Assembly (NCBI GenBank): GCA_965287045.1
Contig: OZ336874.1
Location: 71,858,001-71,922,000, forward strand
Length of the DNA stretch: 64,000 nucleotides
Source: Carcharhinus amblyrhynchos
Taxonomy: Eukaryota
Reading direction: 5' to 3'
The notes under the pieces: generated by a model
Databases searched by the model: none
What the model saw: the letters and a program-made list of their open reading frames with translations, nothing else
What the model was told of the DNA's origin: nothing
Program-made: the position numbers and the translations under genes
Shown here: one piece after another, positions 1,219 to 55,866 of the stretch
Layout of the letters: every line of letters begins with the position of its first letter
Position numbering within the stretch: position 1 is the first letter of the stretch

Positions 1219-3950
1219 TAAAGGTTTACCTAACAAAGCTGATTGATATAGATGGGAGGGAAAAGGGGGTGGGGTAGCTCTGCTGATTAAGGATAATATC
1301 AGGGCGGTAGTAAGGGAAGATATAGGCTCCAAAGAGCAGAACGTGGAATCGTTGTGGGTGGTGATAAGGAACAGCAAGGGGAGGAAGATTCTGGTGGGTA
1401 TGGTCTTTAGGCCCCCAAATAATGACTTGGAGGTGGGGCAGGCTATAAACAAGCAAATAAATGATGCGTGCAGGAATGGAGCGGCGATAATTATGGGGGA
1501 TTTCAATCTGCATATTGATTGGATGACCCAGGTCGGACGCGGTGGGCTTGAGGAAGAGTTCTTGGAATGCTGCCGGGATAGTTTCCTTGAACAGTGCGTG
1601 TTGGAGCCGACGAGGGAGCGAGCTATCTTAGATCTGGTGTTGTGTAGCGACGCAGGAAGAATTAGGGGTCTTGTTGTGAGGGATCCTCTTGGGACAAGCG
1701 ATCATTGTATGGTTGAGTTTTTGATGCAGATGGAGGATGAGAAAGTAGGGTCCCGAACCTGTGTCCTCTGTTTGAACAGAGGGGAGTACGATAGGATGAG
1801 AGAGGAATTGGCAAATGTAGATTGGGGGCGCAGATTGGTTGGTAGGACTGCTGAAGAACAGTGGAGGATCTTTAAGGAGATCTTTTTCGGTGCTCAGCAG
1901 AAATATATTCCAATGGTATAGAAGGAATGTAGGAGAAGGGATAACCACCCGTGGTTATCGAAGGAAATAAAAGGGAGTATTAAATTAAAAGCTGATGTGT
2001 TCAGAGTGGCTAAAAATAGTGGGCGAGTAGAAGATTAGGAGAGGTTTAAAAATCAACAAAGAATGACTAAGAAGTTGATAAAGAAAGGAGGAATAGACTA
2101 TGAAGCTAAACTAGCACTAAATATAAAAAAGGGCAGTAAGAGTTTTTACAAATAAAGAAGAAGAGGCTGGCTAGAGTGAATGTTGGGCCCTTAGAGGATG
2201 AGAGGGGGGATTTAGTGGTGGGAGATGAGGAAATGGCTGAGGCCTTAAATAAGTTTTTTACCTCGGTCTTCACGGAGGAGGATGCAAATAGTTTGCCGGA
2301 TATTAAAGATAGAAGGATAGTAGGAGTTGAGGGCCTGAATGCGATTACTGTCACTAGAGAGGTAGTGCTTGATAGACTAACGGGACTGATGGTGGACAAG
2401 TCCCCAGGACCAGATGGAATGCATCCCAGGGTTCTGAAGGAAATGGCAGAGGTGATAGTAGATGCCTTAGTGATTATTTACCAAGCTTCGCTGGATTCTG
2501 GGGAAGTGCCGGAAGATTGGAAAACGGCTAATGTTACGCCGCTGTTTAAATAAGGTAGCAGGCAAAAGGCAGGGAATTATAGGCCAGTTAGTTTAACATC
2601 TGTAGTTGGAAAAATGCTTGAATCCGTCATCAAAGAAGAAATAGCGAGGCACCTAGAAAGGAATGGTTTGATAGAGCAGACGCAGCATGGATTCGTTAAG
2701 GGGAAGTCGTGTTTGATGAATTTATTGGACTTCTATGAGGATGTGACTAGTGCGGTAGACAGAGGGGAACCGGTGGATGTGGTGTTTCTCGATTTTCGAA
2801 AGGCGTTTGATAAGGTGCCGCATAAAAGGTTGCTTCAGAAGGTTGGGGGCATGGAGTTGGGGGTAAGATGTTAGGCGTGGATAGAGGATTGGTTGTCTAA
2901 TAGGAGGCAGAGAGTTGGTATCAATGGGTGCTATTCTGATTGGTGGTTGGTGCCGCAGGGATCGGTGCTGGGACCTCAGCTATTTACCATTTATATAGAT
3001 GATCTGGAGGAGGGGGCTGAGTGTAGGGTGACGAAATTTGTTGATGACACAAAGATGAATGGAAAAGCAAATTGCACAGAGGGTGTGGAAAGTCTGCAGA
3101 GGGATCTGGATAGGCTGAGCGAGTGGGCGAGGACCTGGCAGATGGAGTACAATGTTATAAAGTGTGAGGTTATCCACTTTGGCAGAAATAATAGTAGGAG
3201 GGATTACTATTTAAAGGGCAAAAAGCTGCAGCATGCTACAGTGCAGAGGGACCTGGGGGTCCTTGTGCATGAGTCGCAAAAACCCAGTCTGCAGGTGCAG
3301 CAGGTGATTAAGAAGGCGAATGGAATGCTGGCCTTTATAGCGAGGGGGATAGAATATAAAAGCAGGGAGGTCTTGCTGCAACTGTACAGGGCACTGGTGA
3401 GGCCGCAGCTGAAGTACTGTGTGCAGTTTTGGTCGCCGCACTTGCGCAAGGATATTTTGGCCTTGGAGGGAGTACAGAGGAGGTTCACTAGGGATGAGGG
3501 GGTTAGACTATGAAGAGAGATTAAATAGACTGGGTCTGTACTCATTGGAGTTTAGAAGGATGAGGGGGGATCTTATAGAGACGTATAAGATAATGAAAGG
3601 GATGGATAGGGTAGAGGTAGAGAGATTCTTCCCGCTCAGAAAGGACAGCAGGACTAGAGGGCACAGCCTCAAGATAAGGGGGGGTGCAGTTTAGAATGGA
3701 GTTGAGGACGAACTTCTTCACTCAAAGGGTGGTGAATCTCTGGAATTCTCTGCCCGTTGAAGCGGTGGAGGCTACCTCGCTAAATATATTTAAGTCACAG
3801 GTAGATAGGTTTTTGACAGACAAGGGAATTATGGGGAGAAAGCGGGAAAGTGGAACTGAGCCACTTCAGATCAGCCATGATCTTATTGAATGGCGGGGTA
3901 GGCTTGAAGGGCTAGATGGCCTACTCCTGCTCCTATTTCTTATGTTCTTA
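1219..3950 (+). mobile_element. CR1-clade LINE (HER1-like), 5'-truncated inside the endonuclease domain; ORF2 broken by stops and frameshifts
   Basis: ORFs 1343-1921, 2176-2553, 2614-2874, 2893-3513 and 3684-3953 give APE motifs (IIMGDFN, ILDLVL, LGTSDH) and RT motifs (KSPGPDGMHPRVLKE, QHGFVKGKSC, FLDFRKAFDKVPH, PQGSVLGPQLF, KFVDDTK). The 3' end is a (TTCTTATG)-type tail. Candidate TSD TGAAAATT lies at 1211-1218 and 3951-3958. Confidence 0.96.
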
Positions 3951-7009: not shown

Positions 7010-7118
7010 ACTGTAACAAGAAAAGAAAGTGCTGAAAAACTCAGCCAGTCAGGCAGCATCTGTGGAGAGAGAAGCCAAGTTAATGTTTCGAGTTCAATAT
7101 GACTCTTCTTCAGAACTG
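7010..7118 (-). mobile_element. Short Penelope-like repeat, family B (TCTCCACAGATGCTGCC-GAC-TGCTGAG tail), with hammerhead motif
   Basis: Same tail as the copies at 13930, 16020, 26170, 32450 and 62850. It is preceded on the minus strand by CTGAAGA..GAAA. Confidence 0.75.
7078..7117 (-). ncRNA. Minimal type I hammerhead ribozyme motif (family B); helix III palindrome mutated
   Basis: Minus strand reads AGUU-CUGAAGA-A-GAGUC-AUAUU-GAACUC-GAAA-CAUU-AACU. Stem I is AGUU/AACU, stem II is GAGU/ACUC, and the core CUGANGA and GAAA are intact. Confidence 0.7.
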
Positions 7119-9934: not shown

Positions 9935-11060
9935 TTTTTTTGGGCTGGAGGAAAGTCTGTAGTGGCGTTCCCCATGGTGTTGATAATGAGAACCTTGCTT
10001 TTCCTGATATGTATGAATGATCTAAATCTTTGTGGACAGGGAACGATTTCAAAGTTTGCAGATGGTGCAAAACTTGGAAATATTATAAACCATGAAAAGG
10101 ACAGTGTTGAGCTTCAGAAGGACATAGAGTGGAGTGGGCAGATAGGTGGCAAGTGAAGTTCAATGTGGAGAAGTGTGAAGCAATGCATTTTGCTCGGAAG
10201 AACATGAAGTGATAATATAAATTAATGGGTAAAATGCTTAAGGGCTGCAGGAGCAGCAGGACCGGGGTGTATATGTACATAAATCATTGAAACTGGTAGA
10301 ACTGGTGGACGGGGCAGTTAATAAAGCATATAGACTTCTTAGTTTTATTAATAGGGGCATAGAACACAGGAGCGAAGAGGTTATGCTGCACTTATACAAG
10401 ACACTGATGAGACCTCAGCTGGGATATTGGGTACAGTTTTGGGTATCACACTATGGAAAGGATGAAAATGCATTGGAGAGAGTGCAGAAGAGATACACAA
10501 GAGTGTTTTCAGGATTAAGGAACTTCAGATATAAGGGTAAATCGGAGAGGTTGGGACTGGTCTCCTTGGAGAGAAGAAGGCCAAGAAGAGATTTGATAGA
10601 AATGTACAAAATCGTGGAAGTGTTGGACAGAGTAGATAGAGAGAAAATGTTCCCACTCGTAAAAAGATCAAGGCAGAAACTCTACCACCTTGTCCGCCAT
10701 GGAATTGGCATGGCCAGTGTCCGACAATGGAAATCTCCGTTGACCTTGGATGGAAATTTCTGGTCTCGCTCGAGTGAGGCCATAAAATCCCGCCCCAAGA
10801 ATGAGAGAACATAGAATTACGAGTGATTTGCAAAAGTTGCAAATATGACATGAGTTTTTTTTTAACACAAATGGTTCAGGTCTGGAATGATGGGTGCTAG
10901 ATGCAGGTTCAATGATGACATTCAAGAGGGAATTAGGTGATTACTTGAATAGAAGCAGAGGTGTGGGAAAAAGGCAAAAGATGGCATTAAGTTATGATGC
11001 TCATTTGGTGCATGTACAATGGGCCAAATGACCTCCTTTTGTGTCAAAACAATTTTATTT
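9935..11060 (+). mobile_element. Decayed CR1 RT/3' fragment interrupted by a MITE
   Basis: TISKFADGAKLG (9962 ORF) and AYRLLSFINRGIE..LYKTLMRPQLGYWVQFW..LERVQKRYTR (10287 ORF). The homology resumes after 10798. Confidence 0.88.
10672..10795. mobile_element. ~125 bp Harbinger-type MITE inserted in CR1
   Basis: Interrupts the CR1 sequence GATCAA|GAATGAGAG. Apparent 3-bp TSD CAA (10669-71, 10796-98) and ends GGCAGAAACT ... AAAATCCCGCCC. A second copy lies inverted at 46738-46847. Confidence 0.8.
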
Positions 11061-15200: not shown

Positions 15201-15367
15201 AACTAGTACTTTTACTTTCTAGTTCATTTTAAAGACTATTGTTTTTCAACATTTCTGAAATTATTTAATTGACAAAAGAAAAATCAGAGTCACTCCTGAT
15301 ACTCAAACTTCTCTGGGGGTTGGCATTTTGATTTATTCTCATGCATTTTCCTTTTCCCTCTGTCCTT

Positions 15368-15500
15368 GTCTCACCTGATGAAGGGGCAGCGCTCTGAAAG
15401 CTAGTGGCTTGTGCTACTACATAAACGTGTGGGACTTTAACCTCACGTTGTGAGACTTCTTACGGTGTTTACCCCAGTCCAACACCGGCATCTCTACACC
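15368..15500 (+). mobile_element. Short Penelope-like repeat, family A (pLTR end plus 3' extension)
   Basis: ATAAAC-TGT-GGACTTTAACCT..GTTGTGAGACTTCTTAC-GTGTTTACCCCAGTCCAACACCGGCATCTC, shared with 29545-29655, 33210-33295 and 43230-43275. The family is physically linked to GIY-YIG-type coding sequence at 33611-33770. Confidence 0.85.
15372..15406 (+). ncRNA. Minimal type I hammerhead ribozyme, catalytic core intact (family A)
   Basis: CAC-CUGAUGA-A-GGGGC-AGC-GCUCU-GAAA-GC-UA-GUG. Stem I is CAC/GUG, stem II is 5 bp, the core CUGANGA and GAAA are intact, palindromic AGCU replaces helix III, and predicted cleavage is after CUA (15403). Confidence 0.78.
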
Positions 15501-16009
15501 TTGTCTCATGGCCATTCATTTTTATTTCCTTGTCCTTTCTGCGCCACTCCAGCCTGAGTCCTGGACCTAATTCCAGGCACTCTTTTGCTCCCTAATTCAT
15601 GTGGTGGGTGAGAACTTCTACCTACAGTTCACAATGGACAGCATCATTAGCAGCAACTTGGGGCCAGAGGTTCTGATCTATGTTGGTCTTTGGCACAAAG
15701 CACCGATGCATATCGAATGCATGGGTTATGAAGCTGCCCACATGTATGCATAATTAACCGATGTCTTCCTTGCAAATACATATTATCTTTGCATATATGT
15801 GTAATGAATATTTCATTCCTACCAAATAAAGCAAAAAAAGGCTGTGGATTTGCATTGAAAATAATAGAAATTCCTGCTTATTCAAGAATGCCAGAATTGC
15901 ATTGCTTGGTATCTGTACATGCATATTTGAAATTTTAAATTGCCCCAAATTAAATATCGCATAGCAATGAAAATGAAGTTTTAATAACTAAAGAGGTTCA
16001 GGGAAAGTT

Positions 16010-17299: not shown

Positions 17300-17720
17300 G
17301 TCTATTATTAATAGAATCGATCCTGACCGTTCAAAACGGATTGGCTCTCGGGCTAAGCCCAAGCTGGCAGTCGTTTCCAAAATGCCAGTGGACTATCCAG
17401 GATCTCTGATTATTCTCTTGGCACCGAGTGAGTGTTTAATTCTCAAAAACGCCGCCCCATAAATGTTTGAGCTGACGGCGAATGGGATGTGGGTGCGACT
17501 CCGGAGCGGCGGAGCCCACTCCCGGGTGCCTGAATAAAGCGAAGAAGAAGCTGCAGTCCCGATCCCGGGGAGGAGTCCAGGCCAGGATTTGAGTGTTGCC
17601 TGCCTCCAAATCGGATAGGCAGTGACAGCTGGAGTTGGGAGGCAGGGATGGGGGTAGGAGAGGGGGCACTTACTGGCTCTGCCTGCCCCGCACTGCTCCA
17701 CATAAGATGAGTCGGAGCTG
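17300..17720 (+). promoter_or_regulatory. SEMA6A: Probable SEMA6A core promoter within a CpG-rich region (~16.4-19.6 kb)
   Basis: Marked CpG/GC enrichment against a CpG-depleted background, essentially repeat-free. Inverted CCAAT (ATTGG 17340-44), GC box CCGCCCC (~17452), TGACAG (~17622), and a strong donor downstream. The TSS position is inferred. Confidence 0.6.
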
Positions 17721-18173
17721 GTGTGTGTGTAGCCAAGCCCGCGGTTGCCTGCTGTGACAGGGAACCCCCCGGGCCAGGAGGCTTCTTCATAACCTTATCC
17801 AGCAGCCTTGGAGGAGAAGAGAGAAGCCGGGACTTGACCCAAGTTCTCCCCCCACCCCACACACACACATACACTGCCTCCCCCCTTGGTAATCGGGTGG
17901 AATTGCTGATGCTTTCCTGAGTGGATTTCTGGGTCATTGTGAAAAGAAAAGAGGGTTTTGTTTTGTTTGGAGCAGCAAAAGTTCCACATGTTTGTTGGGC
18001 TGCTTGGGGAAACAGCCGAGTTACTCTGCCCCTTGTCAAGACCAGGCACATGTACCTTCAGAGCGGCTGACAAGCGCGGTGTGTGTGGATCAAATTGGCC
18101 AGAGATAGCCTTAAATGGATTACTAATGAGACAGCCGGTTCGTTCCCCTCGCTTGCCTTTGCAAAGCCAGAAG
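17700..18173 (+). other. SEMA6A: Probable non-coding exon 1 (5' UTR) of SEMA6A; start approximate
   Basis: Strong donor AAG|GTAAGA at 18173/18174 inside the CpG-rich region, followed by a pyrimidine-rich tract. The first coding exon begins with an acceptor, so an upstream non-coding exon is required, as in mammalian SEMA6A. Confidence 0.62.
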
Positions 18174-21100
18174 GTAAGAGTGCTGAACGCGGCTCGGCAT
18201 CTTTTTGTTTGTTTCTGCAGGCTGCGAGCACCGGTTCTTTGTTATTTGTGAGTGCCCTTTCCTTGGGATTTGTTCTTGCTAATTGTTCACCCTCGGCAGT
18301 GAGCAGATCCACAGGGAGCCCGAGTGTATGGAGCTGGGGCTGGAACCTGGAGTCTGATTCTCAGCTCCTGTGGATTGCTGCTCACTGGTGTTAAATATCG
18401 CTTCTGGATTCGTGTTTTCTCCCGATAAATGCTGAGTCTGGTTTTAACATCAGAACCTCAAAGCATAAATCACAGTTTTCTATCTGGTAGACAATGCATA
18501 AACCACATCATTTAAAAAAAACTGTTCCGACGGGCGGTTTCTTGCTATTTATTGAAGTTGCCTTCAAAATTTTTGTATCTTGTTTGCTTCTTTAAATTAA
18601 AATATTGCCTTTTTTCAACTGTTTTTACCGCCCGGGCGTACAAAGATGTTTTGCTTGGTAACTCTAGTAAGCGGCTCGAGTGTATTTACAAAGGGCTTTG
18701 CACAGACGTACTTACTGAGGCTCCAGGATTTGGTGGAGCAAGCGCTCAGATTTGTGCTGTGTGTGTATTTACTCTCTGCTCTGAGAGTAGGGGGTGGGTA
18801 AGGGGCTGCAGCAGCAGACCCTATTGCTGTGCTGTGTGTACCGAGCTATTCCCCTGATCAACATTAGAAACAGTCTGAAAATTCCCCACGTGTTTTTTTT
18901 TGGAGGGGGAGGGCGGTGGATGGTGTTCTGATCTGACAGCAGTCTAGTTGGAACATTAAACACCTGGAAAGCAGAGGAGGGTCGCCTCTGTGAGGGGGGC
19001 AGGGAGAGAGAGGGAGAGAAGTTTGGATATGCAGCTGCTAAAAAGCATATAGGAGCTGGTCCGTTTTCTCTGCATGACAAGGGTACGGGAGTGTCTCTCT
19101 CGGAGTTGGGGGGGTGGGTGGTTAGAAGCGTGGAGCACGGGGGTCAGGCCAGAGGTTACAGTCCAACAGCTGCTTTAGCGGGAAGGCTGTGTGGCAATAA
19201 CACCCAGCAGATTTCATACAGTGGCTGGCGGAGGAGACCCTTCTTTTGGCCCTCACCGTTTATCTGTTGTGAAAGGGGAGATGAACCGCGTTTACTGCTC
19301 AATATGTAGTGGGTTACACAAATCTGCATTTTAAGTGTGTCTGTGTGGCTGGCGGGATACCTTGACTGCAGTGGAAATAGTCCCCAGAGACCCAGCTCCC
19401 CATGCATCACAGAGCTGGTGTCAGAATTAAATTGGCCTGAGCCAGTATATATTTCTGCTTGTTGGTCGTGTGGTCGCGCAGATGCTTATCAGTGCGCGTA
19501 CAGAAAGTATAAATGCATATCGTGGTTAGGCCTGTCGGACCACAGAAATAAAATGCAATCACTGAGTGGGAAAAAAATCTGTACTTCAAAATTGGCTTTG
19601 TGTGCGTGCGGATCCTAGTCTTGAGTTATGGCTCAGCTAGGGATCTTCATCTATTAATCATGGAAGCTACTTATTTATTCAGTTTCCATAGTTTCAAAGC
19701 CTCTGATAGTGTTTTAGTGTCTTGGGAATGGCTTGAAATACAGTAGGGCCACATGCTCACAGCCTTTCTGTAGTATGGACCTTTTTTATTGAAAAAAGGC
19801 TTCAGTGTTTGACGACAGCTTCCTTCCTTCTGTTCCTGCCTCTGGTGTGAACTTTGGGTACAGAGACTTTGCTCAGTGTTGCTGCTGCTGGTTTAGTTTG
19901 GGCAGTAGAAGCTTTCTATTTATCAAATGACACATGTAGAGTAAAATGATGGCCTCTCCAATCAGCATTGAGTATTTGCAAATGCCAGTCATGATTTCAT
20001 GATTATTCATCAGCAGATGCTATGTTTTCTCATTACAACCTTATGCCGGAAACAAATATTCCATATGGATGTGTCTGACACTTGGAAGTGTTAACCCAGT
20101 TTTTTTTATATATCAAACTGCTCTGTGGCTTTCCCATAGGCCACGACCGAGTGACAGACTGCCTCGTTTTGTTAAGCAGAGCAACGTAGGTGTCTATGAG
20201 TATGTTGATGTTTGTGTACACGAGAGGGTGTTTATATTTTCTACACGTTAACGTTCTTGTCACAATGCTGGTCTAGGAATCGCGATTCCTCTTTCAGAAA
20301 GGGCTGAGTGACAACGTGGGGGGTTAGGAGCATCCAATCAGTCCCAGCAGCATCCACAGTCCCCCTCAGCCCCTTCCCACATACTTCGCAGGAAGGGATG
20401 GGGCTTGCTGCTCCTTCCACTTTTCCCTCCTTTGCCCGCTTTTTGTTCTGTGCTCCATCTGGTGGCCTGACCAAGAATTGGAGCAACCAGTAAGGCCAGC
20501 TGAGTTCAAATCTCCGCCGAGATGAGGATTCAAAGGTGGGACCCTCTTTGAGAGTGGGATTCGTGCATCGCGCTGTTTTTGAGATATCGCCTTACCTTCG
20601 GAGTGAAAGGTGTTATCCCAAGCCTGGCATTGTGCTAATGTATCGGGTTGCAGAGGCGCAATAAAAATGTGTCCTCGTAAATCCTTCCATTGTGATTTGC
20701 TGGGAGGAGAAGTGTAATGTTGTGATCTGATATGAGTGAAACATTACTGGATCAAAGGCTGGTCATGCTCACAGGACTTGCTACACAAACCTGATTGTCT
20801 GCCGCTCCTGGCTCTGCAGGATAAGGACTTGGGCTGGCGTTGGAATGTAACAGGGCAAACAAAACGCTGTACTGTCTCATCAGAAAAAGTAAGTTGAGTT
20901 TTTGTGTAGCTGTGATTTGGATTGAATGCCTTTTCACTTTGAAGCTTACAACTGTTTGCCAAACATTACGAATGATTGTTGGATGCATCTTTATTTTGCT
21001 CTCTACATTTGACTGTAATTTGGGTCTGATCCGTGCAACAACAATTTTCTGTGATGAGTGAGGTGTCTGCAAATGTTAGCTTTACTTTTAAAATATCTTG

Positions 21101-29390: not shown

Positions 29391-29431
29391 ATCTTTTAGT
29401 TTGGGTTTTTTCTCTGACCGTGTGTCACAAA

Positions 29432-29668
29432 GTAAGAAGTCTCACAACACCAGGTTGAAGTCCAATAAGTTTATTGGATAGTAAACCCACAAGCTTTCGG
29501 AACACTGTTCCTTTGTCAGGTGAGTGGAAAGTTCTGATCAGCGCGTTCCGAAAGCTTGTGGGTTCACTATCAAATAAACTTGTTGGATTTTAACCTGGTG
29601 TTGTGAGACTTCTTACTGTGTTTACCCCCGTCCAACACCGGCATCGCCACATCATAACTACCATTGAC
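29432..29668. mobile_element. Penelope-like family A insertion: inverted pLTR plus 5'-truncated direct copy with 3' extension
   Basis: Arms 29431-29503 and 29545-29617 are inverted copies. Flanked by a 15-bp TSD ACCGTGTGTCACAAA (29417-31) / ACCGCATGTCACAAA (29669-83). Hammerhead on the minus strand at 29488-29522. Confidence 0.88.
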
Positions 29669-33124: not shown

Positions 33125-33295
33125 AGTGCCTTTATATGCTCTGTGTGTGACCAGAACTCTCCACTCACCTGACAAAGGGGCAAACCCCAAAAGCTAGTGG
33201 GTCTCCTATCAAATAAACCTGTTGGACTTTAACCTGGTGTTGTGAGACTTCTTACTGTGTTTACCCCAGTCCAACACCGGCGTCTCCACATCATG
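33125..33295 (+). mobile_element. Penelope-like family A pLTR with degenerate hammerhead (33166-33199)
   Basis: CAC-CTGACAA-A-GGGG-CAAA-CCCC-AAAA-GC-TA-GTG, then AAATAAACCTGTTGGACTTTAACCTGGTGTTGTGAGACTTCTTACT and the 3' extension. Confidence 0.85.
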
Positions 33296-33305
33296 TCTCC
33301 AAAGA

Positions 33306-33772
33306 CAGTAAGAAGTCTCACAACACCAGGTTAAAGTCCAACAAGTTTATTTGGAGCAAGTGCCACTAGTTTCAGAATTGGCTGTGCCTTCGTCCGGTGA
33401 GTGGGGAGTTCTGTTCACAAACAGGGCATATAAAGACACAAACTCAATTTACATGAATAATGGTTGGAATGCGAGTCTTTACAGCTAATCAAGTCTTAAA
33501 GGTACAGACAATGTGAGTGAAGAGAGGGTTAAGCACAGGTTAAAGAGATGTGTATTGTTTCCAGACAGGACAGTTAGTGAGATTTTGCAAGTCCAGGCAA
33601 GTTGTGGGGGTTACAGATAGTGTGACATGAACCCAAGATCCCGGTTGAGGCCGTCCTCATGTGTGCGGAACTTGGCTATCAGTCTCTGCTCAGCAACTGT
33701 GCGCTGTCGTGTGTCGTGAAGGCTGCGTTAGAGAACGCTTACCCGAAGATCAGAGGCTGAATGCCCGTGACT
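33306..33772 (-). mobile_element. Penelope-like element 3' end including C-terminus of the GIY-YIG endonuclease ORF
   Basis: Minus strand 33769-33611 reads HGHSASDLRVSVL*RSLHDTRQRTVAEQRLIAKFRTHEDGLNRDLGFMSHYL* (H..E..I..F.T...GLN signature), followed by a 3' UTR, a degenerate hammerhead (33364-33399) and the family A terminus. Confidence 0.88.
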
Positions 33773-43094: not shown

Positions 43095-43277
43095 GTAAAG
43101 ACTCACATTCCAACCATTCATCACATTCCAATCTGTAATTATCTTGCAATTGTGTCTTTGCCTATATATGCTGTGTTTGTGAACTGACCTCCATTCACTT
43201 AATGAAGGAGCTCTGAAAACTCATGATTCCAAATAAACCTGTGGGACTTTAACCTGGTGTTGTGAGACTTCTTATTT
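43095..43277 (+). mobile_element. Penelope-like family A pLTR with degenerate hammerhead (43196-43225)
   Basis: AAAGACTCACATTCCAACCATT..TGTTTGTGAAC..CAC-TTAATGA-A-GGAGCTCT-GAAA-AC-TC-ATG..AAATAAACCTGTGGGACTTTAACCTGGTGTTGTGAGACTTCTTA. Confidence 0.82.
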
Positions 43278-46847: not shown

Positions 46848-47126
46848 AATGGTTTTTATTTGATGTGAAGGGTTGAAAGAAGAAGCACCCCATAGATATA
46901 GAATGAGGAGAGGAATAATATAGGAGCTGAAGAAATACTTGAAAAAAGGTTGTTGAAACAATTGGACAGGATGAGGATGGGGTTGGGTGTGATAGTAGAG
47001 AATAACTACAATCTTTTATCTTCTGAAATGATTAATGATTCATGGTTTAGACACACAAAGAAGAAAGATGATTGCTGATGTAAATGTAGGAAGAAACTGA
47101 TTCTGAATTCTCTTCTGTTCGCTATC

Positions 47127-47623
47127 ATTATAGGAAGGATGTGGAGGCTTTGGAGAGGGTGCAGAGGAGGTTTACCAGGATGTTGCCTGGTATGGAGGGG
47201 AGGTCCTGTGAAGAGAGACTCAGGGATTTGAGGTTGTTTTCGTTAGAAAGAAGGCAGCTACGAGGGGACCTTATTGAAACATATAAGATGATTAGAGGTT
47301 TAGATAGGGTGGACAGTGATAGCCTTTTTCCTCGGATGGAGAAAGCTAGCACGAGGGGGCATAGCTTTAAATTAAGGGGGGGTAGTTATAGGACGGATGT
47401 CAGGGGTAGGTTCTTTACCCAGAGGGTGGTGAGGGATTGGAATGCTCTGCCTGCTGCAGTTGTAAATGCGCCTAGTTTGGGGGCATTTAAGAGATCCGTG
47501 GATAGGTTTATGGATGGTAAGAGTTTGGTTTAGGTTAGAGGGTCATTGTTTTTTAACTGGTCGGTGCAACACTGTGGGCCAAAGGGCCTGTTCTGCGCTG
47601 TAATGTTCTGTGTTCTATGTTCT
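47127..47623 (+). mobile_element. Young 5'-truncated CR1/HER1 LINE end
   Basis: Open ORF 47141-47533 (ALERVQRRFTRMLPG..RGDLIETYKMIRGLDRVD..TRGHSFKL..FFTQRVV..WNALP). Tail (TGTTCTA)n; candidate TSD CTATCAT at 47122-28 and 47622-28. Confidence 0.93.
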
Positions 47624-54230: not shown

Positions 54231-55313
54231 GTGAGGTGGGCCTGTGCCAATTTAGGAGTGTGTCTCCTGATGTGTTTTTGCAACACTAAACGGGTTATTC
54301 AATGAATTCAAAAAGACCTAGTTTACATTATTAACCACTGACTGCTGGCCTGAGGTCTATTCCGGGTGTCATTTGCAATAAGTATCGGATCTGCCCTCTT
54401 TACAATAGTCCTTGAAATGCAGGAGGTCATATGACAGCGATTGAGCTGTACTTGCTTATACTGCTTCAAGATAATTGCATTGCAGCAACATCAGAACACA
54501 CTGCCTTGTTAGCATATTTTATTATCAGATGATGGAGGTTATAATCCTTGTCAGAGTAGCATTGGGCAGTCTCTGATGCTGGCTCAATAGTTATCCTAAG
54601 GCAGATAGGTAAGTTTGTGTGCAGACATTGTTCTGGACTGCACAGTTGTCAACCACGGCACAAGATTTGAATGTGTAATGGATTAATTGTTGAATATATT
54701 GCAGTGTTGATTTTAGGTATGCAATTACACAGGGTTCAGCAGAATGTAAATTAAATTCTATTTTGGAATTGATAATTAAAAGTTGGCACAAAAGGACATT
54801 TGAATAAATTTTTTCCAGGCCAGTTAGTGTCAGCAAGACATTGATGCCAGGTTTGAAATCTTTGGTCCATTTAACTCCATTCTTACTTGTTTACTCTTTT
54901 CTGTTTGATTTATTTTGCAATCCAGAAGATTGTGAATTGTCCAAAATAAAAACAACTGAGTGATTTTGAAAAGCATTTGGAATATGGGGATAAGAATTTT
55001 TCCAATTTCTATCCTGATACATTAGTTGGAAATGCTTTACCTAGATACTCAAATGAATTTTTGAATGTAGGCAAAGCATTATCTCTTTTTCCCTCATTTC
55101 TCTTTTAGTCTTGGTCTCTTCATTCTTTCTCTCTATTCCCCTCTGTCTTGATTTCTGAACAATGGATGTATATGTGAAATGCAAAATAATGCTATTTCTC
55201 ATTACCAATCTTTCACAGTCATAGTTAAAACCCCTGATTGGATACAAAGTTGACATTATTTTCCTTCCTCCGCAGGCTTAAGTGAAAACAAGACGTGAGC
55301 TAGCTGCGCTACT

Positions 55314-55413
55314 ATGAAGTCTGAGGCCTTGCTGCTATATTTTTCGCTACTACATTTTGTTGGGGCTGGTTTCCCCGAAGACTCTGAGCCTATCAGTATT
55401 GCACATGGCAACT
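55314..55413 (+). CDS. SEMA6A: Semaphorin-6A, first coding exon (exon starts at 55276; signal peptide)
   Basis: MKSEALLLYFSLLHFVGAGFPEDSEPISIAHGN, nearly identical to the recalled human N-terminus MRSEALLLYFTLLHFAGAGFPEDSEPISISHGN. Acceptor TTCCTTCCTCCGCAG|, donor |GTAAGT, 100 coding nt, phase 1. Confidence 0.97.
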
Positions 55414-55748: not shown

Positions 55749-55866
55749 ATACGAAACAATATCCGGTATTTTTGGGTCACAAACCAGGTCGAAATAGCAC
55801 ACTAAGACACAAGCTGGACATTCAGCTGATTGTGAAAATGAATCGAACACTCTACATTGCTGCTAG
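55749..55866 (+). CDS. SEMA6A: Semaphorin-6A, second coding exon (start of Sema domain)
   Basis: (Y)TKQYPVFLGHKPGRNSTLRHKLDIQLIVKMNRTLYIAA(R). Acceptor TCTCCTCTAACAG|, donor AG|GTCAGT, 118 nt, in frame with the previous exon. Confidence 0.97.

Follow-up and report, generated by a model that had tools for sequence, protein, structure and literature searches.

A hammerhead-shaped motif upstream of a shark SEMA6A gene is probably the decaying remnant of a Penelope-like retroelement

The window, by which we mean the whole 64-kb stretch of Carcharhinus amblyrhynchos DNA analyzed here, carries exons of a semaphorin gene on its + strand. The first coding exon (55276-55413, with the ATG at 55314) was recognized by its translation and splice sites and the second (55749-55866) by phmmer, which matched it to semaphorin-6A chains at E 1.2e-15 as against 1.8e-4 for semaphorin-6D, confirming the identification as probable SEMA6A in an earlier note made from the letters alone. 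A likely non-coding first exon lies at 17656-18173 on the same strand, within a CpG-enriched region at 16-21 kb. It is outlined by spliced contigs from three studies (X1, X2 and X3; runs guessed to be RNA) that match up to the GT donor 18174 and continue elsewhere, the longest of them running from 17656, and its 5' end is not fixed; we infer that this exon is joined to exon 2 of SEMA6A. Over 17656-18174 a contig of organism A shows 0 differences in 519 bases and organisms B and C show 2 differences, the picture of a strongly conserved 5' leader. The hammerhead-shaped motif studied here, at 15372-15406, had been placed ~2.3 kb upstream of the SEMA6A start, and this distance stands: the exon reaches back to at least 17656, 2,250 bases from the motif, and the contigs themselves cannot fix the start site.

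The motif belongs to a repeat family of which seven fragments lie in the window, five of them covering the motif. The descriptor and family scans located, apart from the copy near SEMA6A, an inverted pair at 29416-29652 in which one copy has G8A and the other begins inside stem II, a further inverted pair at 33141-33424 with both cores broken, and a + strand copy at 43174-43277 whose core is broken and whose stem II is shortened. The copy at 15372-15406 is the only core-complete one among the five, as the earlier note had stated and the descriptor scan bears out. The two inverted pairs of pLTR stubs also cause spurious matches to plant microRNA families of Rfam, all far below the gathering score. 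Reading frames at 1247-3950, 10242-10811 and 47090-47530 resemble endonuclease and reverse-transcriptase (RT) pieces, which we take to be those of LINE-type elements. Another abundant repeat family contributes a second hammerhead-shaped motif at 7082-7116 on the - strand, in which the core boxes, the extra A and a G-C closing pair are present and the palindrome reads ACAT where its relatives have ACGT.

The motif at 15372-15406 (+ strand) has the anatomy of a minimal type I hammerhead, judged from its sequence, a descriptor scan with shuffles and variant counts. Stem I is formed by CAC (15372-15374) and GTG (15404-15406), and between these strands follow the core box CTGATGA (15375-15381), an extra A (15382), a 5-bp stem II of GGGGC (15383-15387) and GCTCT (15391-15395) with the loop AGC, the GAAA box (15396-15399) and the palindrome AGCT (15399-15402), with no helix III loop; A15403 is H17, and the predicted scissile bond comes after it. 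The core boxes CUGANGA and GAAA, U16.1 and H17 are each present, the unpaired core bases are complete, the palindrome stands at about 15.1-16.2 next to a stem I of 3 bp, and the extra nucleotide between 9 and 10.1 is A15382. Site, core bases, stems and the loop-less AGCU palindrome are all as the earlier note described them, the sequence and the strict descriptor being in agreement, and the extra base after A9 is, as it also held, a known hammerhead feature (PMC4209133). The bulged register of stem II, which accommodates the extra A, is worth -3.5 kcal/mol as against -2.0 for the bulge-free register. An alternative stem II register with A-U closure was rejected for its lower stability.

The hammerhead shape of the motif is real and beyond chance. 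The strict descriptor gave 2 matches in the 64-kb window as against a mean of 0.02 over 100 shuffles, and a palindrome-bearing match arose in 1 of the 100 shuffles; the loose core pattern alone, with 11 matches for 6.42 expected and 7 of 100 shuffles reaching 11, was not significant. A descriptor search had been put forward as a check, and its outcome was divided: the strict descriptor finds the motif, and an Rfam scan of the window, with 16 matches at E up to 10, yields no hammerhead family.

The word intact, which had been used for this hammerhead, does not survive inspection of stem II. Its closing pair is G10.1-U11.1, not G10.1-C11.1, and two of the five pairs are G-U wobbles, the other being 10.3-11.3. 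Loss of G10.1-C11.1 is expected to slow cleavage, the size of the G-U penalty being taken from general background. G10.1-C11.1 is one of four recurrent, highly conserved features of minimal hammerhead ribozymes (min-HHRs; PMC4209133), and a measured effect of G10.1-U11.1 was not found in our literature search. Because this pair is lost and the copy has no tandem partner, we class it as a decayed descendant of min-HHRs, not as an intact member.

To judge by its genomic copies, the family bears the marks of an EN+ Penelope-like element (PLE) of the Neptune/Nematis type in PMC8557442. Longer copies extend upstream via the pLTR into an open reading frame encoding a GIY-YIG endonuclease, which locates the hammerhead in the pLTR. 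PF01541 (GIY-YIG) scored above the Pfam cut-off in copies L009 and L127, and PF00078 (RT) reached E 6e-4, below the cut-off, in L058, in the same orientation and upstream of the repeat; these three copies give the order of RT upstream of a C-terminal GIY-YIG. A CX4CxxC motif precedes the endonuclease in translations of L009, L027 and L127, within the CX2-5CxxC linker definition that we took from PMC8557442. On the 3' side most family copies end in one of two groups of profile columns, 120-134 (48/110 copies) or 150-154 (42/110), ~30-35 nt apart, and the PLE tail is given as 30-40 bp in PMC11167929 and PMC8557442. Inverted pairs are frequent among the copies. The linkage to GIY-YIG and RT, together with the min-HHRs described in PMC4209133, upholds the earlier proposal that the motif is a minimal type I hammerhead, derived from a Penelope-like pLTR and dependent on an AGCU dimer. 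In L087, L163, L171 and L188 the inverted pairs are centred on or beside the hammerhead palindrome, as if the cDNA had folded back there.

Pairing in stem II is retained across the family in 198 of 232 cells (58 of 63 copies), with a shuffle mean of 178 and 0 of 2000 shuffles reaching 198, a result that is not a probability, the copies being mutually related. In the 58 copies the pair 10.3-11.3 occurs as A-U (31), G-C (16) and G-U (7), the closing pair 10.1-11.1 is G-C in 36 and G-U in 16, and position 17 is non-G in 56. Such counts indicate that the hammerhead structure was kept across subfamilies while the element was active. The family shows each min-HHR feature that could be tested; the copy at 15372-15406 does not.

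This copy forms the 5' end of a short pLTR fragment, 15370-15498 (+ strand), delimited by alignments to genomic copies. Its identity to the best of them is 88-92% over ~129 bp, a range scored on the best 40 of 4,136 candidates and omitting the window itself and one partial match. The same 10-mer stands at 15364-15373 and at 15499-15508 (+ strand), the left and right copies of a target-site duplication, and the final four bases of the left copy equal the element start, pointing to microhomology at the junction. Between the duplications the fragment is solitary, where a retrozyme has two or more units in tandem, all bearing a complete hammerhead, and it has no TATA-like box, host flank occupying the place of one. 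Alignments reveal a decayed poly(A)-type hexamer, CATAAA, at 15420-15425 (+ strand), where the family has AATAAA; base 15420 is A in nearly all family contigs. By 3'-end clustering, the last 35 nt (15464-15498, + strand) span the interval that separates the family's two common 3' ends and correspond to the PLE tail. At 15440-15452 three adjacent private changes form a perfect small hairpin, which resembles one template-switch event rather than three substitutions.

The insertion is likely common to organisms F and G, and would have been kept in related species. Contigs of both are 96-98% alike in the unique flank and extend into the element by 28-30 bases on the left and by 22-26 on the right, ending inside the motif; the sharing is graded only as likely because these overlaps fall under the 31-letter bar of the comparison. 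Among the matches listed from DNA runs there was no empty-site joint, X5 having no cover of the near flanks. A shared insertion speaks for co-option, that is, for a copy kept since it cuts read-through transcripts ahead of the SEMA6A promoter. Within the copy, 1-2 changes in the 35 nt of the motif as against 8-10 in the other 92 nt (counts read from alignments) amount to no excess conservation (Fisher p 0.29-0.73, with the little power that 35 nt afford).

The copy is one of very many. The genome contains its 35-mer in 83 exact copies and the downstream 23-mer in 37,742; 81 family fragments in 1.0 Mb of evenly spaced stretches extrapolate to ~240,000 genome-wide, and 9 intact G-C copies in 1.0 Mb to an estimated ~26,000. 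The larger sample comprised 110 fragments in 1.264 Mb, 63 of them anchored on the core. Thirteen of these 63 core-covering copies are intact by descriptor (11 G-C and 2 G-U), or 12 of 58 outside the window. At the latter rate, simple arithmetic gives a 69% chance of at least one intact copy in five, so that the lone intact copy among the five in the window is unremarkable.

The CpG at 11.1-12 allows two kinds of decay to be compared, since TG retains G12 and CA loses it, and G12 is the general base of the hammerhead (PMC6155905). A narrow pattern with C11.1 found 4,015 copies, the same pattern with U11.1 found 3,144, and with the core-breaking A12 (G12A) 2,726; an independent sample at this CpG gave 25 CG, 16 TG and 13 CA of 59. 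Because U11.1 is about as frequent as core-breaking A12 at the same CpG, the counts fit a decay of the family's hammerheads that is close to neutral after insertion. The ratio of U11.1 to A12 is 1.15 : 1, and this 15% excess (p 5e-8) could come from weak selection, strand bias or subfamily structure. The U11.1 of the copy at 15372-15406 is most simply a CpG decay product.

The copies also suggest where the RNA of the element begins. In a sample made up of L081-L200 and the window, 25 of 110 fragments start at most 6 bases before stem I as compared with 3 in the preceding 8 bases, inverted pairs counting twice. A TATA-like box, scanned with a consensus that we assume to represent it, stands 33-37 bases before stem I in 22 of 31 long copies, with a background of 4%. 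This cluster of starts, with a TATA-like box ~30 bases earlier, suggests that the element RNA starts just before the hammerhead, which would place the hammerhead at the very start of an RNA that seems usually to be uncut when copied. According to PMC11167929, reverse transcription begins inside the RNA, at two tail sites. A test for a cap-derived G at the 5' boundary gave 63 G vs 37 A in the first 100 of 2,423 matches (by eye; p 3e-5 vs 0.42), and G exceeds A also one position over, including copies that continue upstream. Fold-back of the element's own start accounts for G/C junctions (by eye, the first 100 of 183 have 57 G, 36 C, 6 A and 1 T).

No footprint of cleavage was seen at the cut site, either in one subfamily examined with controls or in the 110 sampled copies, of which 1 starts at the cut column. 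In that subfamily 90 copies begin at the cut site or one base before, and the control starts number 50 at 3 bases upstream and 166 at 3 downstream, the latter figure being inflated by internal deletions. A17 is retained in 65 of the 90 (by eye), which means that most of them begin before the scissile bond.

The minimum free energy structure of the bare 35-mer contains stems I and II (-6.3 kcal/mol, z 0.57). Since the bare 35-mer folds correctly and retains core, palindrome and stem I, a trimmed RNA of the bare motif may cleave as a dimer. The flanks are predicted to mask both the core and the cut site of this copy. In the predicted structures, which take this form once the flank has at least 12 bases, a pyrimidine-rich stretch of host flank (15360-15370, + strand) binds 15377-15389, in the core and the 5' arm of stem II, and a 7-bp hairpin at 15402-15419 (+ strand; -8.8 kcal/mol, the second strongest among 58 copies) buries U16.1 and A17 along with the 3' arm of stem I. 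With flanks, the hammerhead-competent fold lies 13.9-15.0 kcal/mol above the ensemble, and 13.9-14.2 where it was set against control copies, whose median gaps are 2.0, 5.5 and 5.7 kcal/mol at three flank lengths; at 40-nt flanks 1 of 15 controls exceeds the gap of the motif copy. The controls were 15 of 20 copies (five without stem I pairing were dropped), all chosen for C11.1, and the energy models omit tertiary contacts, proteins and co-transcriptional folding.

Cleavage as a dimer calls for a partner. The 64-kb window holds no other intact + strand hammerhead that could serve as the second one, and a search extended to 200 kb before the window placed the nearest intact same-strand copy 44.5 kb upstream. 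A single S. mansoni min-HHR was uncut as a monomer and cleaved weakly as a dimer (PMC4209133); for the Anolis PLE hammerhead, cleavage required the protein of the element, and RNA-seq ends at the cut site were absent (PMC11167929). We consider it unlikely that the copy is a residual ribozyme, without a host role, in which stray sense RNA pairs via AGCU with element RNA and is slowly cut after 15403, leaving SEMA6A unaffected. Such cutting would draw on the complete core bases and the palindrome, on family sequence that is plentiful in runs guessed to be RNA, on the estimated ~26,000 intact G-C copies genome-wide as possible partners and on a double-hammerhead core that still reaches -9.3 kcal/mol. 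This core is, however, the weakest of 16 (controls -10.1 to -16.3 kcal/mol, a contrast partly built in by the selection of controls for C11.1), the 4-bp AGCU duplex contributes just -2.5 kcal/mol, the flanks are predicted to mask the core, and the copy has no TATA-like box of its own.

A role at SEMA6A meets further difficulties. The motif is on the SEMA6A sense strand and lies upstream of the SEMA6A exon in the contigs, which cannot show its absence from the transcript. Divergent promoter transcripts run antisense. A divergent upstream transcript would therefore carry the reverse complement of the motif; to include the motif itself, a transcript would have to run in the sense direction from a point further upstream. 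The fragment, lacking a TATA-like box, cannot easily supply such a transcript itself; by analogy with the internal, TATA-less promoter of Penelope in D. virilis (PMC2377424), the stub may hold an internal promoter, which would start at or after the 5' end of the motif. Among the contigs listed from four runs of related organisms (runs taken to be RNA by guess), none joins the unique flank to the motif, and 15604-15905 is without cover, both of which are uninformative on transcription either way. CATAAA in place of AATAAA argues against termination. By chance, a pattern copy in sense orientation should lie at most 2.5 kb upstream of about 76 genes, a lower bound (7,159 pattern copies, 25,000 genes assumed), and the position of this copy near SEMA6A is likely chance.

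The earlier note had gone further and suggested a cleavage or termination point next to the SEMA6A promoter. The family rate of intact copies, the loss of G10.1-C11.1 and AATAAA, the lack of a near partner, the predicted masking, the want of excess conservation and the strand of divergent transcripts all weigh against it. Co-option in this sense seems to us highly improbable. It can point to the sense orientation 2.25 kb before exon 1, to the only complete core among the five copies of the window, to an insertion likely common to organisms F and G and to the hammerheads that amniote genes have domesticated (PMC6155905), but about 76 genes should have such a neighbour by chance, G10.1-C11.1 and AATAAA are gone, the 35 nt show no excess conservation, the fold is predicted to be masked, no partner is near, and the domesticated examples have other, fuller architectures (PMC6155905). 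There is an equally slight chance that several shark species have retained the insertion for cutting assisted by a protein or a partner, with read-through RNA on its way to the SEMA6A promoter pairing via AGCU with RNA from the element and being cleaved in trans.

The motif is a hammerhead at the 5' end of what remains, ~130 bp, of a PLE end repeat, and very probably this copy is decaying neutrally and does no useful RNA cutting here. Element identity, target duplication, copy number, G10.1-U11.1, the lost AATAAA, the missing TATA-like box and the lack of a near partner are the observed basis of this reading. The element's RT would have primed at the internal tail site of uncut element RNA and run ~130 nt to the likely start of that RNA just before stem I, and the cDNA would have joined the target via CTCA microhomology. 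Later CpG deamination would have hit C11.1, by luck sparing G8 and G12. In a sense transcript made today, core and cut site are predicted to be folded into competing helices, and cutting would be expected to depend on another molecule acting in trans and, probably, on the protein of the element.

The copy itself thus matters little, as a below-average specimen of a published pattern: thousands of scattered minimal hammerheads are what PMC4209133 describes for PLEs in fish, coelacanth, frogs and reptiles. The cluster of starts just before stem I has some value for the question, still open, of the in vivo function of PLE hammerheads. Cutting in trans, if true, would mark the first time that a host has put a dimer-dependent minimal hammerhead to use in that manner, and co-option, if true, would amount to a new form of promoter insulation by retroelement ribozymes; nothing here points to co-option.

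Domesticated vertebrate hammerheads (in the RECK intron and the Clec2 3' UTR; PMC6155905) share with the copy a retroelement origin and a place in or near a host gene. They are, however, found within host transcripts and have been conserved among amniote lineages, whereas the copy is decayed, one of thousands, and situated before the first exon. A type I hammerhead from PLE pLTRs is likewise carried by non-LTR retrozymes, which a preprint reports from one chondrichthyan genome (bioRxiv 10.64898/2026.07.22.740005); retrozymes count there as active only with two or more tandem units, and the copy is solitary. In PAc, the Poseidon element of Anolis carolinensis (Frangieh et al. 2024, PMC11167929), two 3' ends separated by one tail lie downstream of the hammerhead, and the main template is seemingly uncut RNA, as also appears for the shark family; the family probably belongs to another clade, and the PAc reading frame starts inside the hammerhead. 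With the Neptune/Nematis EN+ PLEs (PMC8557442) the family has in common RT followed by a C-terminal GIY-YIG, the CX4CxxC linker, a tail of 30-40 bp, and 5'-truncated and inverted copies. Unlike those elements, the window has non-coding stubs only, and the likeness is drawn from partial copies.

The supplements of PMC4209133 that were searched contain no shark terms, and a literature search for Penelope, shark and hammerhead ribozyme returned 'shark' only as a head shape; Lunse et al. 2017 may list shark motifs. The closest known system is the min-HHRs of metazoan PLEs (Cervera and De la Pena 2014, PMC4209133). These, too, are of type I, with a palindrome, no helix III loop and an extra base between 9 and 10.1, and they are located in pLTRs and dispersed as thousands of single copies. 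The copy upstream of SEMA6A differs in its G10.1-U11.1 and in having shorter stems than the S. mansoni families (3 bp plus one G-U in stem I and 5 bp in stem II, as against 4-5 and 7-8 bp). In how it works and in its descent, it is one of their line.
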